Source: Alphaproteobacteria bacterium (GTDB lineage: Bacteria; Pseudomonadota; Alphaproteobacteria; UBA7985; JAUIBT01). From it: 64,000 nt of DNA. Below are positions 723 through 59,215 of this stretch, in pieces (position 1 is the first letter of the stretch; each line of letters opens with the position of its first letter). Location of the stretch: assembly GCA_030432195.1 (NCBI GenBank), contig JAUIHE010000001.1, positions 4,634 through 68,633 on the forward strand, written 5' to 3'. Made by a program: the position numbers and the translations under genes. The notes below the pieces were generated by a model. The model was not told the origin of the DNA and did no database searches. It saw only the letters and a list, made by a program, of their open reading frames with translations.

Positions 723-1679
723 ATGTCCGCTCGTTCAGAACGCCGACAAGTTGCCCTGCAAATGGACCCGCTTGCGCCCATCAACATTGATGCCGACAGC
801 AGCTTCGTGCTGGGCCTAGAAGCGCAAAAGCGCGGCTATGACCTTTGGCACTTTCTGGTGACCGATCTGACCTATTGGCATGGCCAGGTCTGCGCCAGCG
901 CGCGTCCTATCGAACTGCGCCGCGAGCTGGGCAACCACTACAGCGCCGGTGACATGGTGCCCCGTAAGTGCTTGAAGGATTTTGACGTGGTGCTGATGCG
1001 CCAAGACCCCCCGTTTGACATGCAATACATCGCCGCAACGCACCTGCTGGAGCTGGATCATCCACGCCCACTGGTGGTCAACCACCCCTTCCACGTGCGC
1101 AACTCGCCCGAAAAGCTGCTGGTGACCTATTTCCCCGACCTCATGCCGCCGACGATGATTACGCGCAATCTGGACGACATCCGCGCCTTTCGCGCTGAAT
1201 ACGATGACATCATCATCAAGCCCTTGTTCGGCAATGGGGGCGCGGGGGTCTTCCACCTCAAGCCCGGCGATGAAAACCTGAGCGCCCTGTTCGAAAACCA
1301 CGTCGCAACCTCACGCGAGCAGCTGATGGTGCAACAATACGTGCCCGCGGTGCGCGAGGGCGACAAGCGGATCATCCTGGTTGACGGCCAGCCCATCGGC
1401 GCCATCAACCGTATTCCTGCGGCCGGTGAGGCAAGAGCCAACATGCACGTGGGCGGCCGCGCCGAGCCCATCGAACTAACCGAACGCGACCGCGAAATCT
1501 GCGCCCGCTTGCAACAAACCCTGGTCGATCGCGATCTGATCTTTGTCGGCATTGATGTGATCGGTGACGTGCTGACCGAAATCAACGTCACCTCGCCGAC
1601 AGGTCTGCAAGAGTTGCAGCGTTTCAGCGGCGTAGACGGAGCGTCCATGATTTGGGATGCAATCGAAAAGCGCCTCTAG
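723..1679 (+). CDS. gshB: glutathione synthetase (prokaryotic ATP-grasp type)
   Basis: 318 aa. Diagnostic GshB segments are present: RIILVDGQPIGAINRIPAAGEARANMHVGG and VGIDVIGDVLTEINVTSPTG. There is an AAGGA ribosome-binding site before the ATG. Confidence 0.9.
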   Translation: MSARSERRQVALQMDPLAPINIDADSSFVLGLEAQKRGYDLWHFLVTDLTYWHGQVCASARPIELRRELGNHYSAGDMVPRKCLKDFDVVLMRQDPPFDMQYIAATHLLELDHPRPLVVNHPFHVRNSPEKLLVTYFPDLMPPTMITRNLDDIRAFRAEYDDIIIKPLFGNGGAGVFHLKPGDENLSALFENHVATSREQLMVQQYVPAVREGDKRIILVDGQPIGAINRIPAAGEARANMHVGGRAEPIELTERDREICARLQQTLVDRDLIFVGIDVIGDVLTEINVTSPTGLQELQRFSGVDGASMIWDAIEKRL

Positions 1680-1836
1680 AGCACAGCCCGAGCAATAGCC
1701 CTCGATTGTGCCAAAGATTCGGGGGGTGTATTTGCGGCAATATCAAACAGATAGAGCGCACCCTGTGAAAATAGGATAACAAAACGCGCTCTAGCCCCTT
1801 AACGCAAAGCCACAAGAACAGGAAGCAGCGCTCGCC

Positions 1837-3372
1837 ATGGTCGCCCACATCCATACCGTCGCCTTTCGAGGCATCGAGGTTGCGCCGGTCGATGTGCAAG
1901 TGCAGTTGTCGGGCGGATTGCCTGCCTTCACGCTGGTCGGCCTACCCGACAAAGCCGTTGCCGAATCTAAAGAGCGCGTGCGGGCAGCGCTGAGCGCCAT
2001 AGGGCTTGCCTTGCCGCCCAAGCGGATCACGGTCAACCTTGCGCCCGCCGACATCTTGAAAGAAGGCAGCCACTTTGACCTGCCGATCGCCCTGGGTTTG
2101 TTGGTGGCGATGGAGCTCATCGCCCAAGACGACATTCAAGGCTACGTCGCGCTGGGCGAATTGGGCCTGGATGGGTCCTTGGCTGTGGTCTCAGGCATTT
2201 TGGCCGCGGCGCGCTTTGGGGCCGAACGCGACCTTGGCTTGATTTGCCCCCAGGCCCAAGGCGGGGAAGCGGCCTGGGCCAGTCCGCCCAGCGTTCTAGC
2301 GCCCGCGCACCTGTTGGATTTGATCGGCCACTTCAAAGGCGAAACGGCCTTGCCCGCCCCTCAACCCCTTGTCGCTCAGGCCGACCCGAGCCAGCGCGAT
2401 TTTGCCCAGATCAAGGGGCAGACCAGCGCCAAGCGCGTTATGGAGATCGCCGCCGCGGGCGGCCACAACGTGCTGATGATTGGCCCACCGGGCGCTGGCA
2501 AGTCCATGCTGGCAGCCGCCTTGCCCAGCATCCTGCCACCGTTGGAGCCCAGCGAAGCGTTGGAGGTATCCACCATCCATTCTATTGCTGGCCAGTTGGA
2601 TGACGGGCGGCTTTTGCACCAACGCCCCTACCGCGATCCGCATCACTCGGCCTCCTTGCCAGCGCTGACCGGCGGCGGTCTGCGGGCCAAGCCGGGCGAG
2701 ATCTCGCTCGCCCATCGCGGTGTCTTGTTTTTGGACGAACTGCCGGAATTTGACCGCCGCACGCTGGAGGCGCTGCGTCAGCCCTTAGAGACCGGCAGTG
2801 TCTCCCTCGCCAGAGCCAATGCGCACGTCACCTATCCGGCGCGATTTCAGTTGATCGCGGCCATGAACCCCTGCCGTTGCGGCTACCTGAACGACCCAGA
2901 GCAGGCTTGCAACAAGGCCCCGCATTGCGGCGCAGACTATCAAAACCGCCTCTCAGGTCCGCTTTTGGACCGTATCGACCTCATTATTGAGATGACCAAT
3001 CTCTCGCCGTTGGAGCTAGCGCGCGAACCAGAAGGCGAAAACTCGGCAACGCTGCGCCAAAGGATCGAGACCGCCCGCGCCCACCAGGCTGCCCGCCTTA
3101 CCGACTTGCAGGCCCCGGAGGATCTTCGGACCAATGCCGAGCTGTCGGGGGCTTGGCTGGAGCGTGCTGCCCCCTTGGACGATGCAGGTATGGCGCTGAT
3201 GGAACAAGCCGTCGAACAGCTTCGGCTATCGGCGCGCGGCTTTTATCGGGTCATCAAGGTTGCGCGGACCATCGCAGATCTAGAGGGCAGCGCGGCCATT
3301 CAAACGGCCCACCTGTCTGAGGCCCTGCAATACCGCCGTCGCGCGCCCGCCCGCGCTCCAGTCGTGCGCTAG
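1837..3372 (+). CDS. YifB/ComM-family Mg-chelatase-like AAA+ ATPase
   Basis: 511 aa. The N-terminal Lon-like domain begins MVAHIHTVAFRGIEVAPVDVQ. There is a Walker A motif, GPPGAGKS, and the C-terminus matches the ComM family. The gshB-yifB order is a common arrangement. Confidence 0.85.
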   Translation: MVAHIHTVAFRGIEVAPVDVQVQLSGGLPAFTLVGLPDKAVAESKERVRAALSAIGLALPPKRITVNLAPADILKEGSHFDLPIALGLLVAMELIAQDDIQGYVALGELGLDGSLAVVSGILAAARFGAERDLGLICPQAQGGEAAWASPPSVLAPAHLLDLIGHFKGETALPAPQPLVAQADPSQRDFAQIKGQTSAKRVMEIAAAGGHNVLMIGPPGAGKSMLAAALPSILPPLEPSEALEVSTIHSIAGQLDDGRLLHQRPYRDPHHSASLPALTGGGLRAKPGEISLAHRGVLFLDELPEFDRRTLEALRQPLETGSVSLARANAHVTYPARFQLIAAMNPCRCGYLNDPEQACNKAPHCGADYQNRLSGPLLDRIDLIIEMTNLSPLELAREPEGENSATLRQRIETARAHQAARLTDLQAPEDLRTNAELSGAWLERAAPLDDAGMALMEQAVEQLRLSARGFYRVIKVARTIADLEGSAAIQTAHLSEALQYRRRAPARAPVVR

Positions 3373-7688: not shown

Positions 7689-7731
7689 AGGCGACCAAGC
7701 AGGGCATGCAGCCCTTTGCGGTCGCTTTTTT
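7689..7731 (+). terminator. Rho-independent terminator downstream of the unknown membrane-protein gene
   Basis: GGCGACC-aagca-GGGC-atgca-GCCC-tttgc-GGTCGC followed by TTTTTTG. This is a GC-rich interrupted stem followed by a T-tract. Confidence 0.6.
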
Positions 7732-7813
7732 GCTATTGTCGCAGGTGATCCTGTGGTGCAACCCTGCAACATCGCCAGCCCCCGCGCCGCATTGGCCAGT
7801 TGAAAGATCCAAG

Positions 7814-9124
7814 ATGAACGCCGCTACACCATCAGCCAACAGCGCCTGGTCTACCGTCATCACGATTGGCGCGCTGTTGTGGGGCGCCTCAATCGCCTTG
7901 GTCGGCTCGACCCTACTGGGGATCGTGCTAGCGCTGCAAATGGAGAGCCGGGGCTACGATACGACGGTCACTTCTGTAGTTATGGCGGGCAATTTCGCGG
8001 GCTTCCTGGTCGGCGCGCTCTATGCCACGACGCTCATCAACACCGTTGGGCACATTCGCGCCTTTGCCATTTTTGCGACCCTTCAGTCGGCGTTGTTCAT
8101 CGCCCACCCCATCCTGGACCATTGGGCCATATGGGCGGTTTTGCGCCTGCTGTCTGGAGCCTGCCTTGCGGGCATCTTTACCGCGGTCGAAAGCTGGATG
8201 AACGACCGCACACCGACCGAGAGCCGCGGCACCGTTCTGGGCATCTATGTCATTACCAACTACCTGGCTCAGATCGGCGGGCAACTGCTGGTCAACGTTT
8301 GGGACTTCAGCCGTATTGAGCCCTTTATCATCGCCTCCATTTTGGGCTCACTGTCCCTCATTCCCGTCGCCATGACGCGACTCTACCCGCCCGAATTGAG
8401 CGACGTGCAACGCATGGGCCTAGTCGAGCTGTACCAAGCCTCACCAACCGCCATCGCGGGCACGCTTGGAAGCGGCGTTCTGGTGGGCTCAACGCTGTCT
8501 TTGGGCGCGGTCTTTGCGCAGCGGATCGGGCTTAGCGTTTACGAGACTTCTTTGTTCACAGGGTCGATCTTGGTCGGCGGGATGTTGTTTTCCTACCCCG
8601 CAGGGCGCTTGGCCGATATGCTCGACCGGCGCTATATCATGATGGGGCTGTTGGCGGTCGCGATTGCGGTATCGTTTGCCATCGTCACCAGTGCGACGGC
8701 TTTGCCGAACTTTTGGCTCTTGCTGGCACTCGTGGCTCTATTTGGTGGCGCGCAAGCCTCGATCTATCCCATTTCGGTTGCGCAGGCCTTCGACCATATC
8801 GCGCCGCAAAAGTACATCTCCGCCGCATCGGGCCTGTTGATCGTCTTTTCCGTCGGCGCAACCTTGGGGCCGGTCCTTGCTTCTTTCGTGATGCGTTGGC
8901 AGGCGGCCGGGCTGTTTTTGACCACCGGCATCTTGTCCGCCTTCATGCTGCTGTTCATCTTCTATCGCACCATGGAGCGCGAAGCAGCGCCAGAAGAAAT
9001 GCAAGAGAGCGTCACCTTCCTGCCGACCACTCCGGGAGCCTTCGAGTTGCTGGACCTCAGCGAAGACGTGCAGGATTTCGACGATCATTTCGACGAAAAG
9101 CTGGAGAGCATCGACGACGACTAA
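7814..9124 (+). CDS. MFS transporter
   Basis: The track ORF 7706..9124 begins inside the upstream terminator. The in-frame ATG at 7814 (MNAATPSANSAWSTVITIGALLWG...) starts the first TM segment. There are 12 predicted TM segments and an acidic C-terminal tail. Confidence 0.75.
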   Translation: MNAATPSANSAWSTVITIGALLWGASIALVGSTLLGIVLALQMESRGYDTTVTSVVMAGNFAGFLVGALYATTLINTVGHIRAFAIFATLQSALFIAHPILDHWAIWAVLRLLSGACLAGIFTAVESWMNDRTPTESRGTVLGIYVITNYLAQIGGQLLVNVWDFSRIEPFIIASILGSLSLIPVAMTRLYPPELSDVQRMGLVELYQASPTAIAGTLGSGVLVGSTLSLGAVFAQRIGLSVYETSLFTGSILVGGMLFSYPAGRLADMLDRRYIMMGLLAVAIAVSFAIVTSATALPNFWLLLALVALFGGAQASIYPISVAQAFDHIAPQKYISAASGLLIVFSVGATLGPVLASFVMRWQAAGLFLTTGILSAFMLLFIFYRTMEREAAPEEMQESVTFLPTTPGAFELLDLSEDVQDFDDHFDEKLESIDDD

Positions 9125-9166
9125 CCCAGCCAGGCAGTGGGGCGTCGGGCCGCCATTATCCAAACC

Positions 9167-9470
9167 GTCGCCGCCACCGCGGCTCGGGGTTTGCAGGTTT
9201 GTTATCCGCAAATCCACCGTCGCCGCCACCGCGGCTCGGGGTTTGCAGGTTTGTTATCCGCAAATCCACCGTCGCAATCAAGGCCGATTGCTCGGGGTTT
9301 GCAGGTTTGTTATCCGCAAATCCACCGTCGCCGCCCCAGCGGCTCGGGGTTTGCAGGTTTGTTATCCGCAAATCCACCGTCGCAATCCAGGCCGATTGCT
9401 CTGGGTTTGCAGGTTTGTTATCCGCAAATCCACCGTCGCAATCCAGGCCGATTGCTCTGGGTTTGCGCTA
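9167..9470. repeat. tandem array of 5.5 copies of a 52-56-bp repeat with a 40-bp conserved hairpin core
   Basis: The core CTCGGGGTTTGCAGGTTTGTTATCCGCAAATCCACCGTCG occurs five times perfectly and once truncated. Copies are joined by two alternating linkers, CCGCCACCGCGG (12 bp) and CAATCMAGGCCGATTG (16 bp). Both linkers are themselves palindromic. Confidence 0.85.
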
Positions 9471-10301
9471 GAGCCCCAAAACGTGCCGCATCGTATAGAG
9501 CCCCGCAGGCTGGCCAGGCAGCCACAAAGCACCTTTGACCGCCCCAGCGGCAAAAATTGAGCGGCTGGTCGCACGGTGCGTCAGCTCGATCCGCTCTTGT
9601 TCGCCCACCAACATGACGGTGTGCTCACCTGCCACGTCACCGCCGCGCAGTGTCGCGAACCCGATCTCCCCGTCAGGACGCGCACCAACGTGACCGTCGC
9701 GCGCATAGCACGCCACCTCGGCCAAGTTTTGCTGCCGCCCTTTGGCCGCCGCCTCCCCCAGCATAAGCGCCGTGCCAGAAGGCGCATCGACCTTCTTGTT
9801 GTGGTGCATTTCCACGACCTCAATATCAAAACTGGGGTCCAGTGCTTTGGCGGCCTGCTCAACCAGCAGGGCCAACAGATTGACGCCTAAGCTGGTGTTG
9901 GCCGCCCAAACGATGGCCACGTGCTTGCTCGCCTCATGCACGGCCTGCTGAGTGGCTTCGGTGAGGCCGGTGGTGCCCAAGAACAGCGGCGTGCCCGTCT
10001 CGACAGCCAGAGCCAGGGTCTCGTCCGTCGCGGTAAAGTGCGAAAAATCGATCACCACGTCCGAGGCTTCAAAGACGCTCCGCCGATCATCGGTCGCGTT
10101 AATCCCCACCGCCGGTAGATTGGCAAGGCTAGCAAGGTCTTGGCCGATGACCTCTGAACCGGCGCGCTCAGCCCCCCCGGCCAAAACGGCGCCGGTCTGA
10201 CCAACAATAGTTTGGATCAGCATCCGGCCCATGCGCCCGCCGGTGCCCATCAGCCCAAGCTTGGCGGGATTGGCGGCGGTGGCTGTGTTTGTTGTCGTCA
10301 T
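9468..10301 (-). CDS. dapB: 4-hydroxy-tetrahydrodipicolinate reductase
   Basis: 277 aa. It has an N-terminal NAD(P)-binding GxxGxxG (LMGTGGRMGRM), the conserved EVVEMHHNKKVDAPSGTA block, and a strong ribosome-binding site (AGGAGAAAACCATG). Confidence 0.9.
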   Translation of the reverse strand: MTTTNTATAANPAKLGLMGTGGRMGRMLIQTIVGQTGAVLAGGAERAGSEVIGQDLASLANLPAVGINATDDRRSVFEASDVVIDFSHFTATDETLALAVETGTPLFLGTTGLTEATQQAVHEASKHVAIVWAANTSLGVNLLALLVEQAAKALDPSFDIEVVEMHHNKKVDAPSGTALMLGEAAAKGRQQNLAEVACYARDGHVGARPDGEIGFATLRGGDVAGEHTVMLVGEQERIELTHRATSRSIFAAGAVKGALWLPGQPAGLYTMRHVLGL

Positions 10302-16334: not shown

Positions 16335-16895
16335 TCATGCGATTTCTTCAATCCAGCCATGATTTCCATCTTCACGGCGATACAAGATGGCGAGTTTGTT
16401 GGTTGACTTGTCTACAAAATGGATGAACCCGCTGAGCTCTTCTTCCAGTTGAATGCTGGCTTCGCCGACGCTGATGACCGGCAGGTCCTTCAAACTTTCC
16501 GAAATAACCAACGGGGCTGCACTGCTGACGGCATCGTCGTGATCCATGTGATCGTCGTCGTCTTGCTCCGCGATCATATCCGTTTCTTCGATGGGAAGTG
16601 GGTGATCTTCACGCAGGCGGCGCTTGTTCCTGCGCAGCTGTTTGCTAAGCGCTTTTAGAGCAACATCAAGGCTTTGATAGGCGTTGCGCGCCACTCCAGA
16701 GGCGGCAAAGTTCAGGTCGTGGCCTATTCGTATGTGAATCTCGGTCATGAAGTTCCCCTGGCGTTTAGACAGGGTTAGGTCGGCGTGCTCGGCCCGCCCG
16801 AAATACTTGGTTAAAATGGTCTCAAGCCCGGTCGAGAAGCGCTCCTTAAAGGCGTCACTCAGTTCAACGTGTAAGCCTTTAGCCGAGATGTTCAT
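16335..16895 (-). CDS. hpf: ribosome hibernation-promoting factor (long form)
   Basis: 186 aa. The N-terminus, MNISAKGLHVELSDAFKERF...LTLSKRQGNFMTEIHI, matches HPF, and the C-terminal dimerisation domain ...FVDKSTNKLAILYRREDGNHGWIE is present. Confidence 0.9.
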   Translation of the reverse strand: MNISAKGLHVELSDAFKERFSTGLETILTKYFGRAEHADLTLSKRQGNFMTEIHIRIGHDLNFAASGVARNAYQSLDVALKALSKQLRRNKRRLREDHPLPIEETDMIAEQDDDDHMDHDDAVSSAAPLVISESLKDLPVISVGEASIQLEEELSGFIHFVDKSTNKLAILYRREDGNHGWIEEIA

Positions 16896-17047: not shown

Positions 17048-18730
17048 TCAAGATGACGCCGCGTATTGGCGCTTACGTTGTACCGACGAACCAAATCCTA
17101 GCGCTTCGCGATATTTGGTGACGGTTCGGCGGGCTAGACCAATTTTCTCCGCTGCCAAAAGTTTGACGATCTTGTCATCTGAAAGAGGGCGCTTATGGTC
17201 TTCCTCTTCGATTAATCGCTTAATATGCGCCTGCACCGCCTTGGCCGCTTGCCCGTCACCCGCAACCTCGCCGCCCCCGACAGACGAAGAAAAAAAGAAC
17301 TTTAGTTCATAGGTGCCCCGCGGTGTCGAAATATACTTATTCGCACACACGCGCGATATGGTACTTTCGTGAAGGTCTAGGCGTTCTGCCAATTGTCTCT
17401 GGACCAGGGGCTTCAAGGCATACAGCCCTTGTTCGAAAAACGCTGCTTGGGCTTCGACCAGGGCGCAAGCTACCCGCAGCATGGTGTTTGCGCGCTGCTC
17501 CAAAGCTGACACCAACCAGTTAGCGGACTGCCATTGTTCGCTTATATAGCGTGCATCGTCTTGCTGACGGTCGGTTTTATCGCTCTTGGCTGTTGCTTTG
17601 ATGTCAGACCGCCAGCTCGCGCTGTGCTGCGCAAGGCTCTGGTTGACCAGCAAGCGCGGCAGGTTGTTGGTGTTGAGCTCGACCAGCCAGGCGCCACCCT
17701 CAGCGGGACGCAGAAAGATATCGGCTTCCAACATCCCGTCATCGCCGCTATCAAACCGGGCGCCGGGCTTGGGGTCCAGGCGCCGGATCAAGGCCAGCGC
17801 TTCGCTGTAGGCGCTTTGGCTACACCCCAGGCGTTCGGCGCCTTGGCGCGGCGACAGCCCGGCCAACCCTTCAAGGTCCGCCAACAGCTTCGCCAACAAT
17901 GCGGAATACTGGCCGCGGTCTTGGAGCTGCAATACCAGGCATTCAGCCAGTGAGCGCGCAAACAGGCCAGCGGGCTCGATTTGTTGGCAGGTCACCACAA
18001 TCCGTTCAAGGTGATCGCCATCAATCCCAAGCTGTTCGGCAAGCGCCTCGGCTTCCATATCCAGGTAGCCCGCCGGACTCAGATAAAAGCAGAGACTTTC
18101 TGCGATTTTGAGATCCAGCGCATCGTCAAACAGCAAGGGCAGCGCCTGGCTGACATGCTGGTGTAGACTGGGCAAGGGTTCTGCAAAGTCGGTGGGGCGG
18201 AAATCAGCCCCAAAATCGCCAGCAGTCGCGGCGTTGGGCCCTGCGCTCAGTTCAAACGCTTGCGTTGAAGCCACCTCTGCCTCGCGCAGCGAACGGGGGG
18301 TCGCGCCCTCCTCTAAACGCTGATCTTCGCGCCAGTCCAAAGGATAGATCGGGGCATCTTCACCGCCAGGGGCCTGGCCAATTCCGTTCGCGCCATTCTC
18401 GTCCGCACCAAGCGCGCTTGGCCCCGCCTCGCTCAGGTCAGCGGAACGATCGCTGGCCTCGGCCGCTGAGGTCTGGTGCTGGCCGATCCGTGTCATAAGC
18501 CCGTCGGCGCTCAACAGCATGCTGTCGCCTGCGCCAACGCTGTCCCCGGCGTTGTTCGCATCACCTTCTGCGCGCTCCAGCATGGGGTTGCTGGCCAGAG
18601 CTTCCTCGACATAATTGGTCAAGTCCAAGCGACTGAGTTGCAGCATCTTGATCGCCTGCTGCAACTGCGGCGTCATCACGAGGGTCTGCTGCTGCTTGAG
18701 ATGAAGTTGAACGCCGGGACCGAGGGCCAT
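17048..18730 (-). CDS. rpoN: RNA polymerase sigma-54 factor
   Basis: 560 aa. The N-terminal region I, LKQQQTLVMTPQLQQAIKMLQLS, and the C-terminal RpoN box, ARRTVTKYREALG, are both present. Confidence 0.95.
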   Translation of the reverse strand: MALGPGVQLHLKQQQTLVMTPQLQQAIKMLQLSRLDLTNYVEEALASNPMLERAEGDANNAGDSVGAGDSMLLSADGLMTRIGQHQTSAAEASDRSADLSEAGPSALGADENGANGIGQAPGGEDAPIYPLDWREDQRLEEGATPRSLREAEVASTQAFELSAGPNAATAGDFGADFRPTDFAEPLPSLHQHVSQALPLLFDDALDLKIAESLCFYLSPAGYLDMEAEALAEQLGIDGDHLERIVVTCQQIEPAGLFARSLAECLVLQLQDRGQYSALLAKLLADLEGLAGLSPRQGAERLGCSQSAYSEALALIRRLDPKPGARFDSGDDGMLEADIFLRPAEGGAWLVELNTNNLPRLLVNQSLAQHSASWRSDIKATAKSDKTDRQQDDARYISEQWQSANWLVSALEQRANTMLRVACALVEAQAAFFEQGLYALKPLVQRQLAERLDLHESTISRVCANKYISTPRGTYELKFFFSSSVGGGEVAGDGQAAKAVQAHIKRLIEEEDHKRPLSDDKIVKLLAAEKIGLARRTVTKYREALGFGSSVQRKRQYAASS

Positions 18731-18896: not shown

Positions 18897-21731
18897 TCAC
18901 AGCTCGAAGTCAGACCCCAAATAGACCTGCCGCACCCGTTCATCCTGCACGATTTCGGACGGCTCACCCTGCATCAGAACGCGGCCGTCGTAAATAATGT
19001 AGGCACGATCGACCACATTCAGCGTATCGCGGACATTGTGATCAGTAATCAGCACGCCAATGCCACGCTGCTTGAGCTGCCCAACCAGGCTGCGAATGTC
19101 GCCGACGGCGATTGGATCGACACCGGCGAAGGGCTCGTCCAACAAGATGTATTGGGGATTGCTGGCCAAAGAGCGCGCAATTTCCGTGCGTCGCCGCTCG
19201 CCGCCCGACAGGGCCAAAGCGTTGACAGACCGCAAATGCGTGATGGAAAATTCGGCCAGCAGCTCTTCCAGTCGGGCCTTGCGCTTCCTGCGATCGGACT
19301 GCACCACCTCCAGCGCTGCCATGATGTTTTGCTCCACCGTCAGGCCGCGGAAGATCGACGCTTCTTGCGGCAGGTACCCGAGCCCGAACTTGGCGCGTCG
19401 GTACATGGGCAGGGTGCTGACGTTGCGCCGGTTGATCCCGACGTACCCTTTGTCCGCCTGTATTAAGCCGCAAACGATATAAAAGCTGGTGGTCTTGCCC
19501 GCACCGTTGGGACCCAGCAGGCCTACGACCTCGCCGGGCCGGATGCCGATGTTGACATCGTGCAGCACCTTGCGTTTGCCGAAAGATTTCTGCAAATTCA
19601 GCGCCACCAGGCCGGGGAAATTGCGATCCAGCGTCGGCAAGGGCGGCAGATTTGAGCGGCGCGCAGGCCGGGCGGGCTTGGCGCTAGCCCGGCGCGGGGC
19701 ATCAATAATCAGCCTTTGCTTTGGCGCCGCGGTTGGGTCGCTGCCAGGCGCTGCGCCGTCCTGCGGTTTTGTCGTTGGAGCGGCGGCGCCCTGGGCTTTG
19801 GTGGGCGCCCCGGTGTTGGGTGCCCCGGTGTTGGGTGCCCCGTTGATCCGAGCCTCGGCGCTGGGCTTGTCAGGGACAGCGGGTGTTGCCGCAGACGCTC
19901 CGGCGTCGCCAGCATTTGCGGTGGTTGGCGCCGGCGCGGCCGCTTGAGCCGGTATCGTGTGCGCCTCGGGCTTGGGTCCAGATTTGGGCAAAAGCTTCTT
20001 GGTTGGCGGCAGAGGCGGCGGCGGCGTTGCCCCCTCGTCCGTTGCCTGCAGAGCCCCTTTGGTTGAGCCAGACTTTGCGGCGCTTGGACTGTTCGAAGCT
20101 GCCCCAGTTTCGCGCTTTTCCTCAGGGCCGCTGGCGGCAGCGCTTGCTGCGGAAGCATCGCCGCCCGCCTCTGGCGCGGCCGGAGCCGGAGCCGCATCAG
20201 GGCTCCCTACAGGGCTGGCAGCCTTGGTCTTGGAGCCCCCTTGCCGGTCCGTGGACCCGGCACCTGGCGCTCGGTCGGACCGTGCATCGGCGCCGCCAGC
20301 GTCTAGCCTTTGAGGGTTGTTGTCGGCTTTAGCCTTGCGGTCATCATCACGCACGCTGCCGCGCTCATCGTCGTGGTCTTTGGGTTTGGCGAACCACGAC
20401 AGCCAACCGCCCCCTGCCTTGCGGGGTTTACTGGCCTTCTGGGGCTTACTGGCCTTCTGGGGCTTACTGGCCTTCTTTTTCGCAGTTTTTGCGCCGGACG
20501 GCTTGACCTCATCCTGCGCGCGGAGCGGCGTTGAAGCCATGCCCTCCGCCTTTTGATCGTCCGCTAGGTCTCGGCTTTTCGGATTTTCGCTGCGCAGTTG
20601 CGGCTCATTGGTCAACTGAGGCTGTTGGGCCGGTGCGGGCCGGTCCGGGGCTGCCCGCTCTGGGGCTGCCCGCTCTGGGGCTGCCTCGTGCTGAGGGGCG
20701 CGCTGCGCTGCAACTCGGCGCGCAAATCGACCACCGCCGGAAGCGGTCGGGCGCGCCGGTGAAGGTGTTTCGAGGGCCTGTTCACGCTGGGCCTGTTCAC
20801 GCTGGGCCTGTTCACGCTGGGCCTGTTCGCGTTGAGTCTGTTCACGCTGCACTTGGGCTTGTTGCGCGAGCGCGCGCTGTTCGGCTTCCAATTGCTGGCG
20901 CTGCTGCTGAGCCTGCTCGCGGCGAACGCGCTCTTGATGAGCCCGCGCACGTTGGGCACGCTCCCATTCCAGCCGCTGACGGTCTTCTTGCGCACGCTGA
21001 GCCTGCTCCCATTGCAGACGCTCTTGCTCGGCGCGGGCCCGTGCCGCTTGCTCTTGCTTGGCCCGATTTTGGGCAGCTTGGCGTTGGGCCTGTTCGCGTT
21101 GGGCCTGTTCGCGCTGGGCCTGCAATTGGGCCTGTTCACGTTGATTTAACAGCCGTGGTGCGCGCGGACCTGCTCCGGGCGCACCACCAACGCCCGGACC
21201 CCGATTGGCCTGTGGACTATTTTGGGGATTTTGGCGCGGCCTTGGTCGTGCCTGGCCCTGCTGCGGCGGACGCCCGGGTTGCGGCCCAGCTTGTCGCGCA
21301 TGCGCTTCTTGTTGCCCAGCCCCGGCGCCAAACAGCCCCTTGGCACGATCCCAAAGCCCGGGCCCGGCGGGCCGATTGGGCGCTGAGCGCTGCACACGCC
21401 CAGGCTGGCCCGGCACCGATCGCGCGCCCTGTTCCCAATTTTGAACCGGATAGCGCACCTGGTTTCGGGTCGGCGCACCTGGTTGGTTACCTTGCTGGTT
21501 TCTTGGCTGGTTTCTTGGCTGGTTTCTTGGCTGGCTGCCGGCTTGGTTTCCTAGCTGACCTCCCGGCTGGCTTCCAACTGGCCGCCCCGCCGGGCCCGGC
21601 GCTGGCCTCGGTTCATCAGCCGCGCGCCGCTCCGCAACGCTGATGGGCTCTTCAAAACTCATCCGTAACGGGTTGCTGGTATTCCGGTCCAAAGCGCGTT
21701 CTGGTTCCCGGTTATAGCGCTTGTCGGCCAT
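18897..21731 (-). CDS. lptB: LPS export ABC-transporter ATPase LptB (canonical C-terminal 236 aa), in frame with a roughly 700-aa repeat-rich disordered N-terminal region
   Basis: The C-terminus is a typical LptB: GPNGAGKTT, LSGGERRR, LLDEPFAGVDP. The frame is open from the ATG at 21731, 8 nt after the lptA stop, through a Q/R/E/A/P-rich low-complexity region encoded by several different perfect tandem DNA repeats. The only canonical-length LptB start would be a GTG at 19607, and it has no ribosome-binding site. Confidence 0.6.
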   Translation of the reverse strand: MADKRYNREPERALDRNTSNPLRMSFEEPISVAERRAADEPRPAPGPAGRPVGSQPGGQLGNQAGSQPRNQPRNQPRNQQGNQPGAPTRNQVRYPVQNWEQGARSVPGQPGRVQRSAPNRPAGPGLWDRAKGLFGAGAGQQEAHARQAGPQPGRPPQQGQARPRPRQNPQNSPQANRGPGVGGAPGAGPRAPRLLNQREQAQLQAQREQAQREQAQRQAAQNRAKQEQAARARAEQERLQWEQAQRAQEDRQRLEWERAQRARAHQERVRREQAQQQRQQLEAEQRALAQQAQVQREQTQREQAQREQAQREQAQREQALETPSPARPTASGGGRFARRVAAQRAPQHEAAPERAAPERAAPDRPAPAQQPQLTNEPQLRSENPKSRDLADDQKAEGMASTPLRAQDEVKPSGAKTAKKKASKPQKASKPQKASKPRKAGGGWLSWFAKPKDHDDERGSVRDDDRKAKADNNPQRLDAGGADARSDRAPGAGSTDRQGGSKTKAASPVGSPDAAPAPAAPEAGGDASAASAAASGPEEKRETGAASNSPSAAKSGSTKGALQATDEGATPPPPLPPTKKLLPKSGPKPEAHTIPAQAAAPAPTTANAGDAGASAATPAVPDKPSAEARINGAPNTGAPNTGAPTKAQGAAAPTTKPQDGAAPGSDPTAAPKQRLIIDAPRRASAKPARPARRSNLPPLPTLDRNFPGLVALNLQKSFGKRKVLHDVNIGIRPGEVVGLLGPNGAGKTTSFYIVCGLIQADKGYVGINRRNVSTLPMYRRAKFGLGYLPQEASIFRGLTVEQNIMAALEVVQSDRRKRKARLEELLAEFSITHLRSVNALALSGGERRRTEIARSLASNPQYILLDEPFAGVDPIAVGDIRSLVGQLKQRGIGVLITDHNVRDTLNVVDRAYIIYDGRVLMQGEPSEIVQDERVRQVYLGSDFEL

Positions 21732-21739
21732 GGCTCGCC

Positions 21740-22675
21740 CTAGTTCCCGCCATCAAGCGTAGCCGGGTTGATGACAATAAAAACGCGCTGATTGTTGCCG
21801 GGGTTGCTGGTGCCAGGCGGCACCGCCAAGATGCGGCCAATTCCGGGCTTGAAGAAAAACTCACCGTATTGGCCTGTCAGCAAGTTGCCGTCTTGAACCA
21901 GGCGCACGTTGCCTTCAAGTTTGGCTGCCTCTTCTACGGGATCATAGACGGCCGAATCTGCCTGCGCGGCAGCGTCCCCTTGAACGATGACAACGTTACC
22001 GCGCGCAACGATCTGCTTGATCTCGGTCGGGCGTATACCCGGGCCGCCACCGCCCGCAAATTGCAGCTCCAACTCATCGGCGTTGAGCCGGTTTTCCTTG
22101 TCCCAAGCGCGCACATTGCCTTTGGCCAAAGCGCGGCTGTTTTGGGGGTCATAGATCAAGGCCTCCGAGGCTTGCACCGTCGTGCCGTCACCCGCCGCGA
22201 AGATCGGCTCATTACCGGTCGCGGTCATCAAGTCCTTATCGACCTCATAGACGATCTTGCCCGCGGAAAGCTGATCTTTATCCAAACGCACATAGACGTT
22301 GCCGATGGCCTCAATGCGATGGATGGCACCCGATGCAGAGCCAAAACCGACCCCGCTTTTTGCTTTGGCGTCTTTGCCATCGCGGTAGTAGGCGCGCAGT
22401 TCTTGAGCGTGGATCGTCACCTCGCCCTGTTGCACCGCCGCATCGCCTTTAGCGATATAGACCTTGCGTTGCTGGTCCCACTCGATGCCTTCAGTCGCGG
22501 TCACAGCAATAGGCTCGTCTTCACTCTGGGCCCAGCTTGCCGAGCTTGCCGCTGCTATCGAGACCAACAAGGAACCGGCGACAAACGCACGCGATAAAAA
22601 AGGCCCAAGCCGCTTGGTGGTGGCGGGTTCAACGCTCCTCTGGGTCATTTGCTGCGGTTCTACAAACTCAATCAT
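21740..22675 (-). CDS. lptA: LPS transport periplasmic protein LptA (OstA-like)
   Basis: 311 aa with a signal peptide (...VSIAAASSASWAQS). It has repeated beta-jellyroll OstA-like segments and lies between lptC and lptB. Confidence 0.8.
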   Translation of the reverse strand: MIEFVEPQQMTQRSVEPATTKRLGPFLSRAFVAGSLLVSIAAASSASWAQSEDEPIAVTATEGIEWDQQRKVYIAKGDAAVQQGEVTIHAQELRAYYRDGKDAKAKSGVGFGSASGAIHRIEAIGNVYVRLDKDQLSAGKIVYEVDKDLMTATGNEPIFAAGDGTTVQASEALIYDPQNSRALAKGNVRAWDKENRLNADELELQFAGGGGPGIRPTEIKQIVARGNVVIVQGDAAAQADSAVYDPVEEAAKLEGNVRLVQDGNLLTGQYGEFFFKPGIGRILAVPPGTSNPGNNQRVFIVINPATLDGGN

Positions 22676-22728: not shown

Positions 22729-23349
22729 TTATTGACGGTTCTGCGGCAATTCATCGAAAATCAGTAGCTCACTTTTACCTTTGATGACAACGCGCTGCCC
22801 CCGGTCTTCGACCAAAAAGCCTTCGCCCTGAACGCGAAAATCCTTGGATTCAACGGTCACCGGCGCATCGCCGCGCACGGTTTCTGTCTCTAAATCCACG
22901 ACGGCTGAGGTAGTGGTCACGCGGTATTCGCCCTTCAGATCCGTAAACTCAACGTTGCCGCTCAGCACGGCTTCCTTCTTTTCCATGTCGTAGGCGCCCT
23001 TGAGCGCCCGCACGATCAGGCCCGTACCGTCATCATTGGTGATCTCACCCGAGGCGTCGATGATCTCCAGCTTTTTCCAATCTTGCGACAGAGGCAGCGC
23101 CCGCTTTGCCCGCAGATCGAATTGAAAATCGTCGATTTTTTCCGTCAATCGCGGATTTTCCACCGGTTGGTTCGGCAGAACCTGCCCTGCGATTAGCGTG
23201 ACCCACAGATTGCGCGAGCGCAGCAAATCCCACAAAGGGATCAGCAAAAGCGCAACAAAGACCAGAACCATAGCCGCAATGATCCCGCCCCGAAGGAAGC
23301 GCACCCACAGGCTATACAGATCCAATGCGGACAATTGTGTGATGGTCAT
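22729..23349 (-). CDS. lptC: LPS export protein LptC
   Basis: 206 aa with a single N-terminal TM anchor and a periplasmic beta-rich domain. It is immediately upstream of lptA. Confidence 0.7.
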   Translation of the reverse strand: MTITQLSALDLYSLWVRFLRGGIIAAMVLVFVALLLIPLWDLLRSRNLWVTLIAGQVLPNQPVENPRLTEKIDDFQFDLRAKRALPLSQDWKKLEIIDASGEITNDDGTGLIVRALKGAYDMEKKEAVLSGNVEFTDLKGEYRVTTTSAVVDLETETVRGDAPVTVESKDFRVQGEGFLVEDRGQRVVIKGKSELLIFDELPQNRQ

Positions 23350-24135: not shown

Positions 24136-24201
24136 GGCCAGGCTTTCATTCAGATAGATGGGCAGATAAATGGGTAGATAAATGGGCAGATAAATGGGTA
24201 G
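24121..24201. repeat. 12-bp tandem repeat (CAGATARATGGG on the plus strand, CCCATYTATCTG on the minus strand), 5-6 copies overlapping and upstream of the RNase D-like start codon
   Basis: cagatagatggt-[catggccaggctttcatt]-cagatagatggg-cagataaatggg-tagataaatggg-cagataaatggg-taggatgcg. Confidence 0.75.
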
Positions 24202-24326
24202 GATGCGCTTGCCTAGCTCGCTTGCCAGCACAAGGCAAGGGGCTGAAGCAACGCGGGAGGCCTAGCAGCGTGCCAACCCTAGCAGCGGGAGGCTCGCTAC
24301 TGAACAGCCAGGCGCCGCCACAAGGC

Positions 24327-31765: not shown

Positions 31766-32602
31766 CTATTTGGTCCCAGCGTGCCTATCGTAGAAGCTGA
31801 AGCCGGAGGGCTGGCGGACAAGCTCGCCTTCTGGCCAACGCAACGCTGTCAGCGTGCCACCGAAAACGCAGCCCGTATCCAGGTTCAAGGTGTTGTTGAG
31901 CCAACGTGCATCTTCGATCGGCGTGTGACCATAGATGACGCTGAAAGGACCGCGCCAATCGGGCGCCCAAACGATCCGCTTGCCGGTGTCGCGGTCCACG
32001 GGTCCATAACAGCAATAGGCGCGCACCGCTGGCCCCGTCTGGCCCAACATGTCAGGGCGTAGACCTGCGTGGGTTATCACCATGCGCCCGTCATCAATCG
32101 CATGGTAGAAGCTGATTGTTTGCAAATAGTCCAACACCGCCTGCGCAAAGGCATCGCTGCAAGCGCGGATTTCTGTGATGCTGGTCTCCAGACCAAAAGC
32201 GATCTGAACGTCGTTGCCCTTTAGCCAACGCATGAAGCGGTCATCATGATTGCCCATAACCGTCATCGCATTGCCCTGGTGTTGCATCCCCATGGCCAAA
32301 CGCAGCACGTTCTTTGTATTGGGACCACGGTCCACCAAATCACCGACGAAATGCAACACGCGCCCTTCGGGATGCGCCGCATAAATGGGCTCTTCGCCGC
32401 CGGGATCAAAGGCCTCGACCCGGTAACCGAGCCTGCGCATCAGCGCCAACAGTTCGTCAAAACAGCCGTGGACATCGCCAACGAAGTCAAACGGTCCAAT
32501 CAGGTTGCGCCGATCCCAATTCCAATGGCCCGTTTGCTTGGGCTCGCCGGAAGAGTCCGTGGCTTTCTTTAGCTTTCGGCTCAAAGCGCCCTCACCTTGC
32601 AA
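31766..32602 (-). CDS. PPP-family metallophosphoesterase (ApaH/PrpA-like phosphatase)
   Basis: It has the motifs GDVHG, GDLVDRG and GNHD. The start is uncertain; the track start overlaps the upstream Sel1/SPOR gene by 22 nt. Confidence 0.7.
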   Translation of the reverse strand: MQGEGALSRKLKKATDSSGEPKQTGHWNWDRRNLIGPFDFVGDVHGCFDELLALMRRLGYRVEAFDPGGEEPIYAAHPEGRVLHFVGDLVDRGPNTKNVLRLAMGMQHQGNAMTVMGNHDDRFMRWLKGNDVQIAFGLETSITEIRACSDAFAQAVLDYLQTISFYHAIDDGRMVITHAGLRPDMLGQTGPAVRAYCCYGPVDRDTGKRIVWAPDWRGPFSVIYGHTPIEDARWLNNTLNLDTGCVFGGTLTALRWPEGELVRQPSGFSFYDRHAGTK

Positions 32603-34629
32603 AAGAAGCCAAGGCTGCCGGCTTTTACGGCGTTACAGACCTGCCAACCCAGTTTTTCGTCCGGGATCGGCCCGGCCACCACGCGAAAACCCTGCTTTCG
32701 CCCGATTGTCACCGGTTCTAGAATTGCCTCCAGGCCGCCCAGAATACTGGGTTCAGACTTCAGCGCGGAAATCCAAAGGTCGGCGCCTTCCTTGCTGGTC
32801 TCCACGGTGCCAACCCACAGGACAAACGGTACGCCTTGCGGCTTGGGCCCAACCAAAATCATCATGCCCTCAGGGGAGGGTTGGAAGGAGGCATTGCCAA
32901 CAGGCTGAGCGGAAGGCGCGCTACCGACAGGCGCGGCGGTCGAGCGATTTGCCGGATAAGTCGGCTGTATGCCTGCAAGGTTTTGGATTTGATTCTGGCT
33001 TTGCGGCCGTAGGGGGCCCAAGCGCTGGCCATTTTGTCCCTGGCCATTTTGACCCTGGCCATTTAGTCCGGCTGCGCCCGTCGCCTGCTGGGGCTGAACC
33101 TGCTGGGGCTGAACCTGCTGGGGCTGAACCGTTAGGGGCTGTGGCACGGGCAACGAAAGGTCGCCATCGTCGGCCTGGTCGCCTCCTTGGCTACCCAACA
33201 GCGGTGTCGCCCCTGGGGCGCCAAGCAGCGCAGTGCCGGATGCCCCTTGAAGCGGGCTTTCAGACAGAGCCGCTGCCATGCTGCCGCTGCCTGCCGATGA
33301 TGCCCCAGTTAGGTTCTGGTTGCCGCTATCAGCGAGCCGCGGGGCGGGGATCGCTGGGACCGTCTCCAGATCAGCTGCGGCACCGGTTTGATTTGCCGCG
33401 GGCTGGCCGTTGGATTGCAGCAACTGCGTATCAACATTGCCCAATTGCAGGCCGCTGAAATCCAGAGCGCCCTTGGCAAGCAAGCTGGGATTAATCAACG
33501 GAGGGCTGCCGTCGAAGGTCTGGAAGCTGTTGGCCTGATTTGCAGCCTGGTTTCCAGCTTGATTTGCAGCCTGATTTGAAGCCTGGCCAGAGGCCTGCCC
33601 GTCGTCCAGCGGGATTGGGGCGGGCACAAGCTGTGAGGCCTGACCGCCTGCCCCCGCCGTCTTTTGCTCGGGCAATCGGGGCACATTCACCGTGCCGGAT
33701 CCGGGCGTAACCAATGGCGCTGAGGGGCTGCTTGTGCCCGCAGCAGAGGACTGAGGCAAGGCCTGGTCTTGCAAGGGCTCGGTGTCCAAGATTTCGCGCT
33801 GAGCCACCAGTCGTGGCAGCTTGGGCAATTTGGCCTGTACGGCCGGATCGTTCAGATTGGCCTCCAGGACGCCCCGGGCTTTCAAATCCGCCACAAAAGC
33901 ATCGGCCGCGTCGTTCCCACCCAACTTTGCCTGCTGCAAAAAGGCCAGAGCCAAGCCTTCGTCTTGCGCCAAACCCAAGCCGCGCAAATAAAACTGCCCC
34001 ATGGCGTAGTGCGCTTGCGGCAAGCCCTGCAAGGCGGCCACAAGCACCAGTCCCAGAGCTTCATCCGTGTCGGCCTCGATACCGCGGCCCGAAAAATAGG
34101 CCAGACCCAGGTTGAATTGCGCGATGGCATTGTTCTTTTTGGCGGCCTGCGTCCAAAGTTCGACAGCCTTTTCTTGGCTCTCGATTACGCCTCGCCCTTC
34201 GGCATAGAGCAGACCCAAGTTGGTCTGCGCTTCGGGCAGGCCACCTTGTGCCGCGCGCTGATAATAGCTGACGGCGAGCAGGGGATCGGGGGCAATGCCC
34301 GGCGCGCCGCTCTCGAATACCAGTGCAAGGCCGTATTGAGCCTCTACGCTGCCTTGCTCGGCCAGCTCGCTCCAAATCGCCACGGCTTCATTGATCCGGC
34401 CTGCTTCCATTTCGGCCAAGCCGTCTTGAAAACTAGCGCCCGAGTTGGCCGCTGGCGCTTGTTGGGCAAAGCTGTGCCCGCCGGCAGCCCCCAAGATCAC
34501 CGCGCCCACCACCAGCGCGCCCACCACCAGCGCGCCCACCACAAGCACGTCGGCAATGACCTTGGCCAGCCTTGCGCGCATCGAAGCAAGCGGGACTAAA
34601 ATGGATGTACGGTCAGAAGGGCCGTTCAT
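32581..34629 (-). CDS. membrane-anchored Sel1-repeat protein with a long Q/N/P-rich linker and a C-terminal SPOR (peptidoglycan-binding) domain
   Basis: There is an N-terminal TM segment (VIADVLVVGALVVGALVVGAVIL), then at least five Sel1-like repeats (AQYGLALVFESG..., AQTNLGLLYAEGRG..., AQFNLGLAYFSGRG..., AHYAMGQFYLRGLG...). A low-complexity linker follows with NQAANQAGNQAANQ, QPQQVQPQQVQPQQ and GQGQNGQGQNGQ repeats. The C-terminus is SPOR-like (FVLWVGTVETSKEGADLWISAL...GFRVVAGPIPDEKLGWQVCN). Confidence 0.7.
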   Translation of the reverse strand: MNGPSDRTSILVPLASMRARLAKVIADVLVVGALVVGALVVGAVILGAAGGHSFAQQAPAANSGASFQDGLAEMEAGRINEAVAIWSELAEQGSVEAQYGLALVFESGAPGIAPDPLLAVSYYQRAAQGGLPEAQTNLGLLYAEGRGVIESQEKAVELWTQAAKKNNAIAQFNLGLAYFSGRGIEADTDEALGLVLVAALQGLPQAHYAMGQFYLRGLGLAQDEGLALAFLQQAKLGGNDAADAFVADLKARGVLEANLNDPAVQAKLPKLPRLVAQREILDTEPLQDQALPQSSAAGTSSPSAPLVTPGSGTVNVPRLPEQKTAGAGGQASQLVPAPIPLDDGQASGQASNQAANQAGNQAANQANSFQTFDGSPPLINPSLLAKGALDFSGLQLGNVDTQLLQSNGQPAANQTGAAADLETVPAIPAPRLADSGNQNLTGASSAGSGSMAAALSESPLQGASGTALLGAPGATPLLGSQGGDQADDGDLSLPVPQPLTVQPQQVQPQQVQPQQATGAAGLNGQGQNGQGQNGQRLGPLRPQSQNQIQNLAGIQPTYPANRSTAAPVGSAPSAQPVGNASFQPSPEGMMILVGPKPQGVPFVLWVGTVETSKEGADLWISALKSEPSILGGLEAILEPVTIGRKQGFRVVAGPIPDEKLGWQVCNAVKAGSLGFFCKVRAL

Positions 34630-52727: not shown

Positions 52728-56591
<3,864 letters not shown>

Positions 56592-58965: not shown

Positions 58966-59215
58966 GAACGCCTGCCTCCTTCAACTCGTATCAACTATGG
59001 CAAAAGCCAGACCAATTGGGGTGCTTTGGTGATCGGAGCATGCCGTCGTTGCAACCTGCGGTAATCTACCTTAAGTTGCTGGCATTTCACAAATCCCATT
59101 TCGAAATAGCAATATTGTGCCAACCCATCAGGCTCGCTCCTCGTTAAGTAGGGCGCCGCGCCCCATACATCAACACTCCCGCCGCGTTGATCGTAGAGCA
59201 AAGGTCAACTGGCTT

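Follow-up and report, generated by a model that had tools for sequence, protein, structure and literature searches.

A long N-terminal extension of the lipopolysaccharide-transport ATPase LptB, probably translated, in a clade of uncultured alphaproteobacteria

LptB, the ATPase of the LptB2FG(C) lipopolysaccharide (LPS) extractor, is treated as a compact, invariant and essential enzyme and as a drug-target component. In the 64,000-nucleotide stretch of an alphaproteobacterial contig analyzed here (JAUIHE010000001.1; the whole stretch is called the window below), the open reading frame (ORF) that ends in LptB comprises 944 codons and a stop, begins with an ATG and occupies 18897-21731 on the minus strand. 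At 944 residues its product would exceed the size of a single-domain LptB, since solved LptB chains have 241-282 residues, and close Rhodospirillales-like homologues mostly have 245-280. The locus thus raises the question of where translation of lptB begins, and of what a tail of this size might do. Comparison of related sequences argues for a single lptB gene, whose product would join a canonical LptB ATPase to an N-terminal extension of about 700 residues translated from the ATG at 21731; we give this reading a probability of about 0.85. The extension in itself is very likely real, translated and selectively maintained. Judged from the orthologous loci, a clade of uncultured Rhodospirillales-like alphaproteobacteria shares this arrangement.

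The lptB frame and its conservation among relatives

The first-pass annotation of this DNA had described a frame open from an ATG 8 nucleotides (nt) past the lptA stop all the way into the LptB ATPase, and this description holds. The LptB frame contains no stop over the 697 extension codons, whereas the other five frames contain 6-26 stops each; only 0.1% of dinucleotide-preserving shuffles (n = 2000) left this frame free of stops, which places its openness beyond chance. The lptA stop codon (TAG, 21740-21742), the 8-nt spacer GGCGAGCC and the lptB ATG (21729-21731) follow one another on the minus strand (21729-21742), an arrangement typical of translational coupling, and translation of lptB is probably coupled to that of lptA.

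Relatives on short contigs were found with an ATPase-core search and full orthologous loci with an LptA search. In L091 (NCBI GCA_030428255.1), L094 (JGI 3300040743), L095 (Logan ERR3428546) and L096 (Logan SRR24874943), an ATG lies 8-9 nt past the lptA TAG in the context TAGGGC...CATGG, and the frame runs uninterrupted from this ATG into the ATPase. The lptA-lptB spacer, which the first-pass annotation had proposed to inspect in relatives, is therefore occupied by the open extension frame in all four. The gene is already called in L091, as a protein of 950 residues with an ABC_tran domain; the frame is open over 982 codons from the ATG in L094, and over at least 894 codons in L095 and at least 768 in L096, where the contigs end inside the core and just after Walker A, respectively. 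Across the five species, the extension has a length of 693-735 residues, with a pairwise identity of 31-48% in the extension and of 93-98% in the core.

An independent Logan assembly, L090, represents a second strain (99% nucleotide identity). Over codons 1-213 it stays in frame, without indels and with point substitutions only, including a cluster at codons 67-70 within an array of NQPR repeats that leaves the frame unchanged. This makes a sequencing or assembly artefact unlikely.

Alignment of the orthologues showed seven blocks conserved in amino acids, the N-terminus included, and nucleotide differences in the blocks that were counted cluster at third codon positions. Across residues 13-36 in block 1, the differences at the three codon positions are 67/52/141; for block 2 they are 22/18/63, all pairs together giving 48 synonymous versus 28 non-synonymous codon differences. 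Codons 677-697, which lie directly upstream of the TTG at codon 698 and hence upstream of both canonical-length starts (TTG 19640 and GTG 19607), were compared with L081, which encodes protein P0043 (core 94% identical in amino acids and 83% in nucleotides) and in which at least 208 codons ahead of the core are open in the LptB frame, up to the end of the contig. Eight of these codons are identical, 10 differ synonymously and 3 non-synonymously; when the 15 nucleotide differences were placed at random, the observed amino-acid conservation was reached in 0 of 20000 trials. The open frame, the conserved ATG, the blocks and the codon-level constraint combine to indicate that translation spans the whole distance from the lptA-adjacent ATG to the ATPase, in support of the earlier claim that a region of about 700 residues is translated together with LptB.

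A sister lineage (P0044 on L082), with a core 81% identical, has a proline- and glutamine-rich tail of just 78 residues that starts 25 nt after lptA, which shows that LptB can in general function without the long tail. A later fusion of lptB with a once separate gene located between lptA and lptB was also considered and rejected, given that in the short-tail relatives lptB follows lptA at a distance of 2-25 nt, without anything intervening.

Other searches returned less. With the 944-residue protein as a query against the protein collection, low-complexity words dominated and just unrelated ATP-binding cassette (ABC) proteins were returned; a genome-contig scan with the ATPase core gave nothing above 65% identity among the matches listed; and a metagenome scan with the junction alignment, whose non-specific pattern saturated, returned distant LptBs alone. 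In three related contigs, automatic gene calling either picked an ORF on the opposite strand or broke the gene up; the protein is mis-annotated in public data as a result, and such proteins are therefore under-represented in databases. The antisense shadow ORFs within the lptB extension have lengths of 182-370 residues and are located at 20531-21643 (plus strand) in the window, 1342-1890 (minus) in L090, 8846-9829 (minus) in L094 and 1136-2074 (minus) in L096.

Predicted architecture of the extended LptB

Judged by sequence, the protein is a true LptB in everything but size, and its ATPase domain belongs to the LptB family. Residues 708-944, the nucleotide-binding domain (18900-19610, minus strand, which includes the GTG at 19607, codon 709), align with positions 2-239 of the 239 positions of TIGR04406, the NCBIfam LptB equivalog, with a score of 361.5 bits (cut-off 240). 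The Pfam ABC_tran match spans residues 723-869 of the 944, and solved LptB chains match from residue ~708 on, over the entire domain, with E values of ~1e-82 to 1e-87. The Walker A motif (GPNGAGKTT, residues 740-748, 19488-19514), the signature LSGGE (residues 841-845, 19197-19211), Walker B (ILLDEP, residues 862-867, 19131-19148) and the H-loop (TDHN, residues 896-899, 19035-19046), all on the minus strand, occupy positions that are invariant across 34 aligned homologues. The protein thus resembles canonical LptB (E. coli; PDB 4P31, 5X5Y, 6MHU, 6MJP) in its domain, its motifs and its gene context, and differs from it by the 707 residues that precede the domain.

Concerning this context, Pfam and NCBIfam agree with the cluster lptC-lptA-lptB-rpoN-hpf as it had been annotated: lptB lies directly 3' of lptC (22729-23349) and lptA (21740-22675, minus strand) and 5' of rpoN (17048-18730), with hpf at 16335-16895, an order common to L091 and L094. 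LptA itself has 311 residues with two LptD_N-type stretches and scores 64.4 bits, under the LptA equivalog cut-off of 71.7, and in L088, a related genome, two lptA-like genes in tandem take its place. Rfam gave no match within the window.

The N-terminal extension (residues 1-707, part of 18897-21731 on the minus strand) has no match in Pfam, NCBIfam or the PDB over residues 1-697. Its conserved blocks, all read from the minus strand, are distributed over its entire length. Block 1 (residues 1-36, 21624-21731) follows the pattern M[AV]D[KR]R ... L[DE]...SNPLR ... EEPxSVAxR. Block 2 (residues 124-135, PGLWDRAKGLFG, 21327-21362) is a short motif of aromatic or hydrophobic and basic residues, with the consensus PGL[WL][DA]RA[KA]GL[FL]G across orthologues. 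The third block is a region rich in Gln, Arg and Glu with a recurring R-L/A-x-W-E-Q/R-x-Q-R. Block 4 (residues 332-344, GGGRFARRVAAQR, 20700-20738), called GRFA, includes GGGRFARRV, which has the second-highest helical hydrophobic moment in the extension. Block 5 (residues 436-451, PRKAGGGWLSWFAKPK, 20379-20426) is another aromatic-basic motif, with the consensus PR[KR]...G[WF]..WF[GA]K.K, and reads GFTLPWFGKRK or LAGLWPFGRKK in orthologues. Block 6 (residues 570-583, PPPPLPPTKKLLPK, 19983-20024) is a polyproline motif, PPPPLP..LLPK, found in L081 too. Block 7 (residues 665-707, DPTAAP..RLIIDAPRRASAKPARPARRSNLPPLPTLDRNFPG, 19611-19739), which includes TTG 19640, forms a basic junction into the ATPase with the consensus (L/V)IDAPRRASA[KE]PARP[AM]RRS[NT]LPP[LM]PxLDR[NK]FPG.

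An AlphaFold2 run on the alignment of 34 homologues predicted coil for residues 1-193 (predicted local distance difference test, pLDDT, <50), a helix for residues 194-321 (pLDDT 94-97), coil for residues 322-707 and the ATPase fold for residues 708-944. The coil includes, at residues 51-193, a disordered segment rich in Pro, Gly, Gln, Asn and Arg with a net charge of +16; the net charge of the whole extension is +15 to +40 in the five species. The predicted α-helix (128 residues, 20769-21152, minus strand) is single and uninterrupted and contains 41 Gln, 25 Ala, 25 Lys and Arg, 21 Asp and Glu, and no Pro or Gly. Only 12 of its 128 residues (9%) are strong hydrophobics, irregularly spaced, and 22 pairs at i/i+4 carry opposite charges, so that in the model it looks more like a single-α-helix spacer than like a classical coiled coil. 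The equivalent stretch free of Pro and Gly has 152-211 residues in orthologues, and its C-terminal end falls at residues 305-322 in all five species.

Between the blocks, the sequence turns over fast, probably through replication slippage of in-frame units of 12, 15 and 18 bp, which would explain why the repeats are species-specific. All five repeat types reported by the first-pass annotation are present where it had placed them, all on the minus strand; it had called them perfect, which is true of two arrays only: (NQPR)n (12 bp x3.4, 21494-21534, within the segment of residues 51-193) and (ERAAP)n (15 bp x2.6, 20647-20685), both with 100% matches. The others reach 90-97%: two arrays of (QAQRE)n, both inside the helix (15 bp x2.8, 21081-21122, 96%; 15 bp x5.1, 20774-20849, 90%), (KPQKAS)n (18 bp x3.0, 20423-20476, 97%) and (GAPNT)n (15 bp x2.7, 19802-19842, 96%). 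Against (NQPR) and (QAQRE) here, we find (KPDTG) and (KEQRQ) in L095, (APTEA) in L096, and (QAASEP) and (EATGT) in L094. Among the tandem repeats called in the five orthologues, 46 of 48 have a period that is a multiple of 3. This pattern fits continual in-frame slippage, with constraint limited to the frame, the overall length and a few motifs.

A possible role for the extension

The extension has no signal peptide and no hydrophobic segment of membrane-spanning length, so the tail would stay in the cytoplasm. There it might act as a flexible tether or spacer, with the aromatic-basic motifs docking either on a partner protein or on the cytoplasmic face of the inner membrane, and with the helix serving as a rigid spacer (~19 nm if straight) or letting the two LptB copies of LptB2FG associate with each other. 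Both the conserved length of the tail and its long helix point to a tether or spacer of calibrated size, or to an element of LptB self-association. This specific tether or spacer mechanism we regard as doubtful. In a broader form, which we hold tentatively and still as less than an even chance, the tail would be a functional, selected module for membrane or partner docking, a length-calibrated tether with a helix of ~19-30 nm that positions, clusters or regulates LptB2FG from the cytoplasm and whose aromatic-basic motif exemplifies a hitherto unrecognized short linear motif common to LptB tails of several bacterial lineages.

Some likenesses to known systems can be drawn. Like ER/K single α-helices and the spacer of TolA domain II, the predicted window helix is long and uninterrupted, poor in hydrophobics and flanked by proline-rich disordered segments; it has many i/i+4 pairs of opposite charge, but only 36% of its residues are charged and 32% are glutamine. 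In sequence, no relationship of the helix to a solved structure in the PDB was detected. Unlike TolA, which spans the periplasm, it sits on a cytoplasmic ATPase. Peripheral membrane ATPases such as MinD (C-terminal KGFLKRLFGG-type) and FtsA carry amphipathic membrane-targeting sequences, and the O-antigen ABC ATPase Wzt has an N-terminal interface helix. Similarly, RAKGLFGAG, GRFARRV and GWLSWFAKPK join aromatic or hydrophobic residues to basic ones on an ATPase of the inner-membrane face. They differ from the MinD and FtsA sequences in being internal rather than terminal and in numbering at least three per protein, and their amphipathicity is weakly supported.

Long tails on LptB-type ATPases are not rare elsewhere. 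When 1.84 billion representative proteins were searched exhaustively without a profile, they were found with total lengths of 484-529 residues in alphaproteobacterium-like proteins and of 514-719 residues in lower-GC lineages. Long-tailed LptB homologues in public data include P0165 (492 residues), P0167 (529), P0169 (484), P0222 (719), P0307 (550) and P0064 (394). LptB homologues longer than 400 residues, which had been suggested as something to look for, thus exist, for instance L091 with 950 residues and P0222 with 719. The six P-numbered homologues share with the window protein a disordered low-complexity tail ahead of the ATPase, several of them with a hydrophobic-aromatic-basic motif, and P0064, like the window gene, starts close behind lptA, 2 nt after its stop. 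The tails outside the clade differ in being shorter (~100-480 residues), unrelated in sequence and without a comparable helix of 130-210 residues being noted; the Walker A offset of 737 in the window protein is the largest of the 241 homologues examined. A motif of hydrophobic or aromatic and then basic residues, a class into which blocks 2, 4 and 5 of the window fall, occurs in 20 of 139 LptB tails from many lineages compared with 9.3 +/- 2.6 in composition-preserving shuffles, the examples including GLAARLFGQQKK in P0169, SLFRPLKKK and RRWFRGRG. Such motif-bearing tails may be widespread among LptBs without having been described. Searches of the literature turned up neither an extended LptB, nor N-terminal tails of this kind, nor an account of the related assembly.

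Many of the homologues outside the clade (P0163-P0312; L028, L033, L039, L086) have tails of 50-480 residues, often with an aromatic-basic motif, as in GLFWNKK in Brucella, MAFTLFPRARR and SLFRPLKKK.

Alternative readings of the locus

Several points weigh against translation of the extension from ATG 21731 or against a function of the translated tail. The whole case is inferred from sequence. When the in-frame candidates were scored by Shine-Dalgarno (SD) pairing energy, ATG 21731 had a weak SD (-5.3 kcal/mol), though lptA, lptC and rpoN have SDs that are no stronger (-3.2 to -4.1 kcal/mol), and an internal ATG and codon 698, discussed below, offer other starts. The synonymous codon adaptation of the extension is low (-0.12 to 0.19, versus 0.13-0.39 in reference genes). 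On the functional side, the 78-residue tail of the sister lineage lacks the conserved motifs; the helix, with 32% glutamine and just 36% charged residues, is atypical for the classical ER/K type; and a ranking by hydrophobic moment fails to single out all conserved motifs, GGWLSWFA and AKGLFGAG being among the most hydrophobic 11-mers and outside the most amphipathic set.

It is very improbable that the extension is untranslated, with LptB starting near 19640 or 19607 and the open frame a by-product of a GC-rich repetitive spacer or of an assembly error. The low codon adaptation agrees with such a reading, as do the long opposite-strand ORFs (e.g. 370 residues at 20531-21643), the antisense or split gene calls and the absence of the exact 944-residue protein from the protein collection. 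Codon adaptation is also low, however, in other disordered linkers of the window (0.06-0.16), and neither it nor codon-position GC discriminates coding from non-coding DNA at this base composition. The reading is opposed by protein-level purifying selection, seen in the distal blocks as well as in the codons just ahead of codon 698, by the conserved position of the ATG, by the absence of stops in this frame alone and by a frame that independent assemblies show to be open in five species and in a second strain. The downstream starts offer little to initiate on: GTG 19607 (codon 709) lacks a ribosome-binding site, as the first-pass annotation had noted (-1.7 kcal/mol), and is not a conserved start, since codon 709 is GTC in 2 of 6 relatives compared. 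It had also been taken for the sole start of canonical length, which overlooked TTG 19640 (codon 698), likewise in frame and the best such start, with a product of 247 residues and no SD (+1.9 kcal/mol). TTG 19991 (codon 581) has no SD match, and no in-frame ATG, GTG or TTG occurs between codons 581 and 698. An internal promoter was considered and found no support; on the minus strand inside the extension we find no sigma-70-like promoter and no terminator-like site.

An unlikely alternative, though less so, is that lptB yields two products, a long form from ATG 21731, minor or regulatory, and a shorter LptB from ATG 20540 or from codon 698 that would do most of the ATPase work. The ATG at 20540 (codon 398, 20538-20540) had been missed by the first-pass annotation in its account of alternative starts; it would give a product of 547 residues and follows the SD-like GGCGGAGGG (20538-20551 with the ATG, minus strand), whose GGAGG pairs at -10.0 kcal/mol, the strongest of the candidates. 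Its spacer is only 2 nt, and the ATG and its SD-like sequence are conserved in no orthologue. Codon 698 lies one residue ahead of P-x-L-x-x-N-x-x-G-L, a motif found before the ATPase in related LptBs, and is start-capable in 5 of 7 sequences (TTG in four, ATG in L095), so that a short isoform could co-exist; yet it is CTG in L094 and L082, no sequence compared has an SD upstream of it, and canonical relatives, the close Rhodospirillales-like LptBs among them, always carry a variable tail of 10-25 residues before this motif (PRLVADNxGL, with PxLVADN at its core). A second product would in any case be added to the long form rather than replace it. We judge it about equally unlikely, though it is the main rival, that the extension is translated from ATG 21731 without a function of its own. 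On this reading a tail that varies naturally in alphaproteobacterial LptBs would have grown by slippage, its frame being kept open just because no other usable start than the lptA-adjacent one exists, in a form of constructive neutral evolution. The fast turnover seen in the identity of the extension relative to the core, the species-specific slippage repeats, the low codon adaptation, the same kind of repeat expansion in the linkers of other proteins of this genome, the sister lineage with its 78-residue tail and the N-terminal tails of 10-480 residues on other LptBs are all consistent with this. Nevertheless, the conserved blocks, the helix and the length argue against pure neutrality: all seven blocks, distal ones included, are conserved in amino acids, with third-position bias where counted, the long helix recurs in all five species with its C-terminal end in nearly the same place, and the total length is kept despite the turnover. 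In addition, a related aromatic-basic motif recurs in unrelated lineages above the level of shuffles.

If the long form is made, as we favor, a whole clade would add a conserved disordered and helical tail of ~700 residues to LptB. Together with the shorter, motif-bearing tails elsewhere, this suggests an unstudied layer of cytoplasmic organization or regulation of LPS export. It would also offer a clear-cut case in nature where an essential enzyme has a fast-evolving disordered region that is remodelled by slippage, the frame, the length and a few short motifs being kept while the rest of the tail changes. We expect this to be moderately surprising for specialists of LPS transport, and the related sequences make the case directly testable.

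Repeats elsewhere in the window

Repeat-rich linkers between conserved domains are also present in other genes of the window, and in-frame repeat expansion in linkers is a genome-wide feature, which speaks for the lptB extension being genuine coding sequence. A Sel1-repeat protein of 682 residues (32581-34629, minus strand) has a linker of ~280 residues rich in Gln, Asn, Gly and Pro, with in-frame repeats of 12 and 15 bp (33025-33585 and 34501-34546) that read (NQA)n, (QVQPQ)n and (NGQGQ)n; its orthologue has 490 residues in L091 and 680 in L094, which indicates that the linker length varies by species. A fusion protein of 1287 residues (52728-56591, plus strand) joins an AMP-binding, acetoacetyl-CoA-synthetase-like enzyme to a C-terminal part of ~390 residues without Pfam match, through an acidic linker with an 18-bp x6.4 repeat, (ASAQDG)n, at 54953-55068. 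In a DUF255/thioredoxin-like protein with a C-terminal DsbD_N-like domain (42039-44606, plus strand), the linker contains 15-bp repeats (44205-44271) that read (ETKPS)n and (QDKSS)n. A class A penicillin-binding protein of 1007 residues (59117-62140, plus strand) ends in a low-complexity tail of ~170 residues with NQGY/NQGF repeats.

Not every repeat here with a period that is a multiple of three is coding. A 12-bp x4 repeat (24151-24198) just upstream of a gene for a 3'-5' exonuclease (RNase D-like) reads (PIYL)n only from a GTG at 24231; the orthologues of 204 residues in L091 and L094 point to a start at MTIYLHQ, and the repeat is thus probably located in the 5' leader. At 9164-9466, between the convergent ORFs 7706-9124 (plus strand) and 9468-10301 (minus strand), a unit of 52-56 bp without Rfam match is repeated in tandem some five times, with a 108-bp super-unit at 97% identity.

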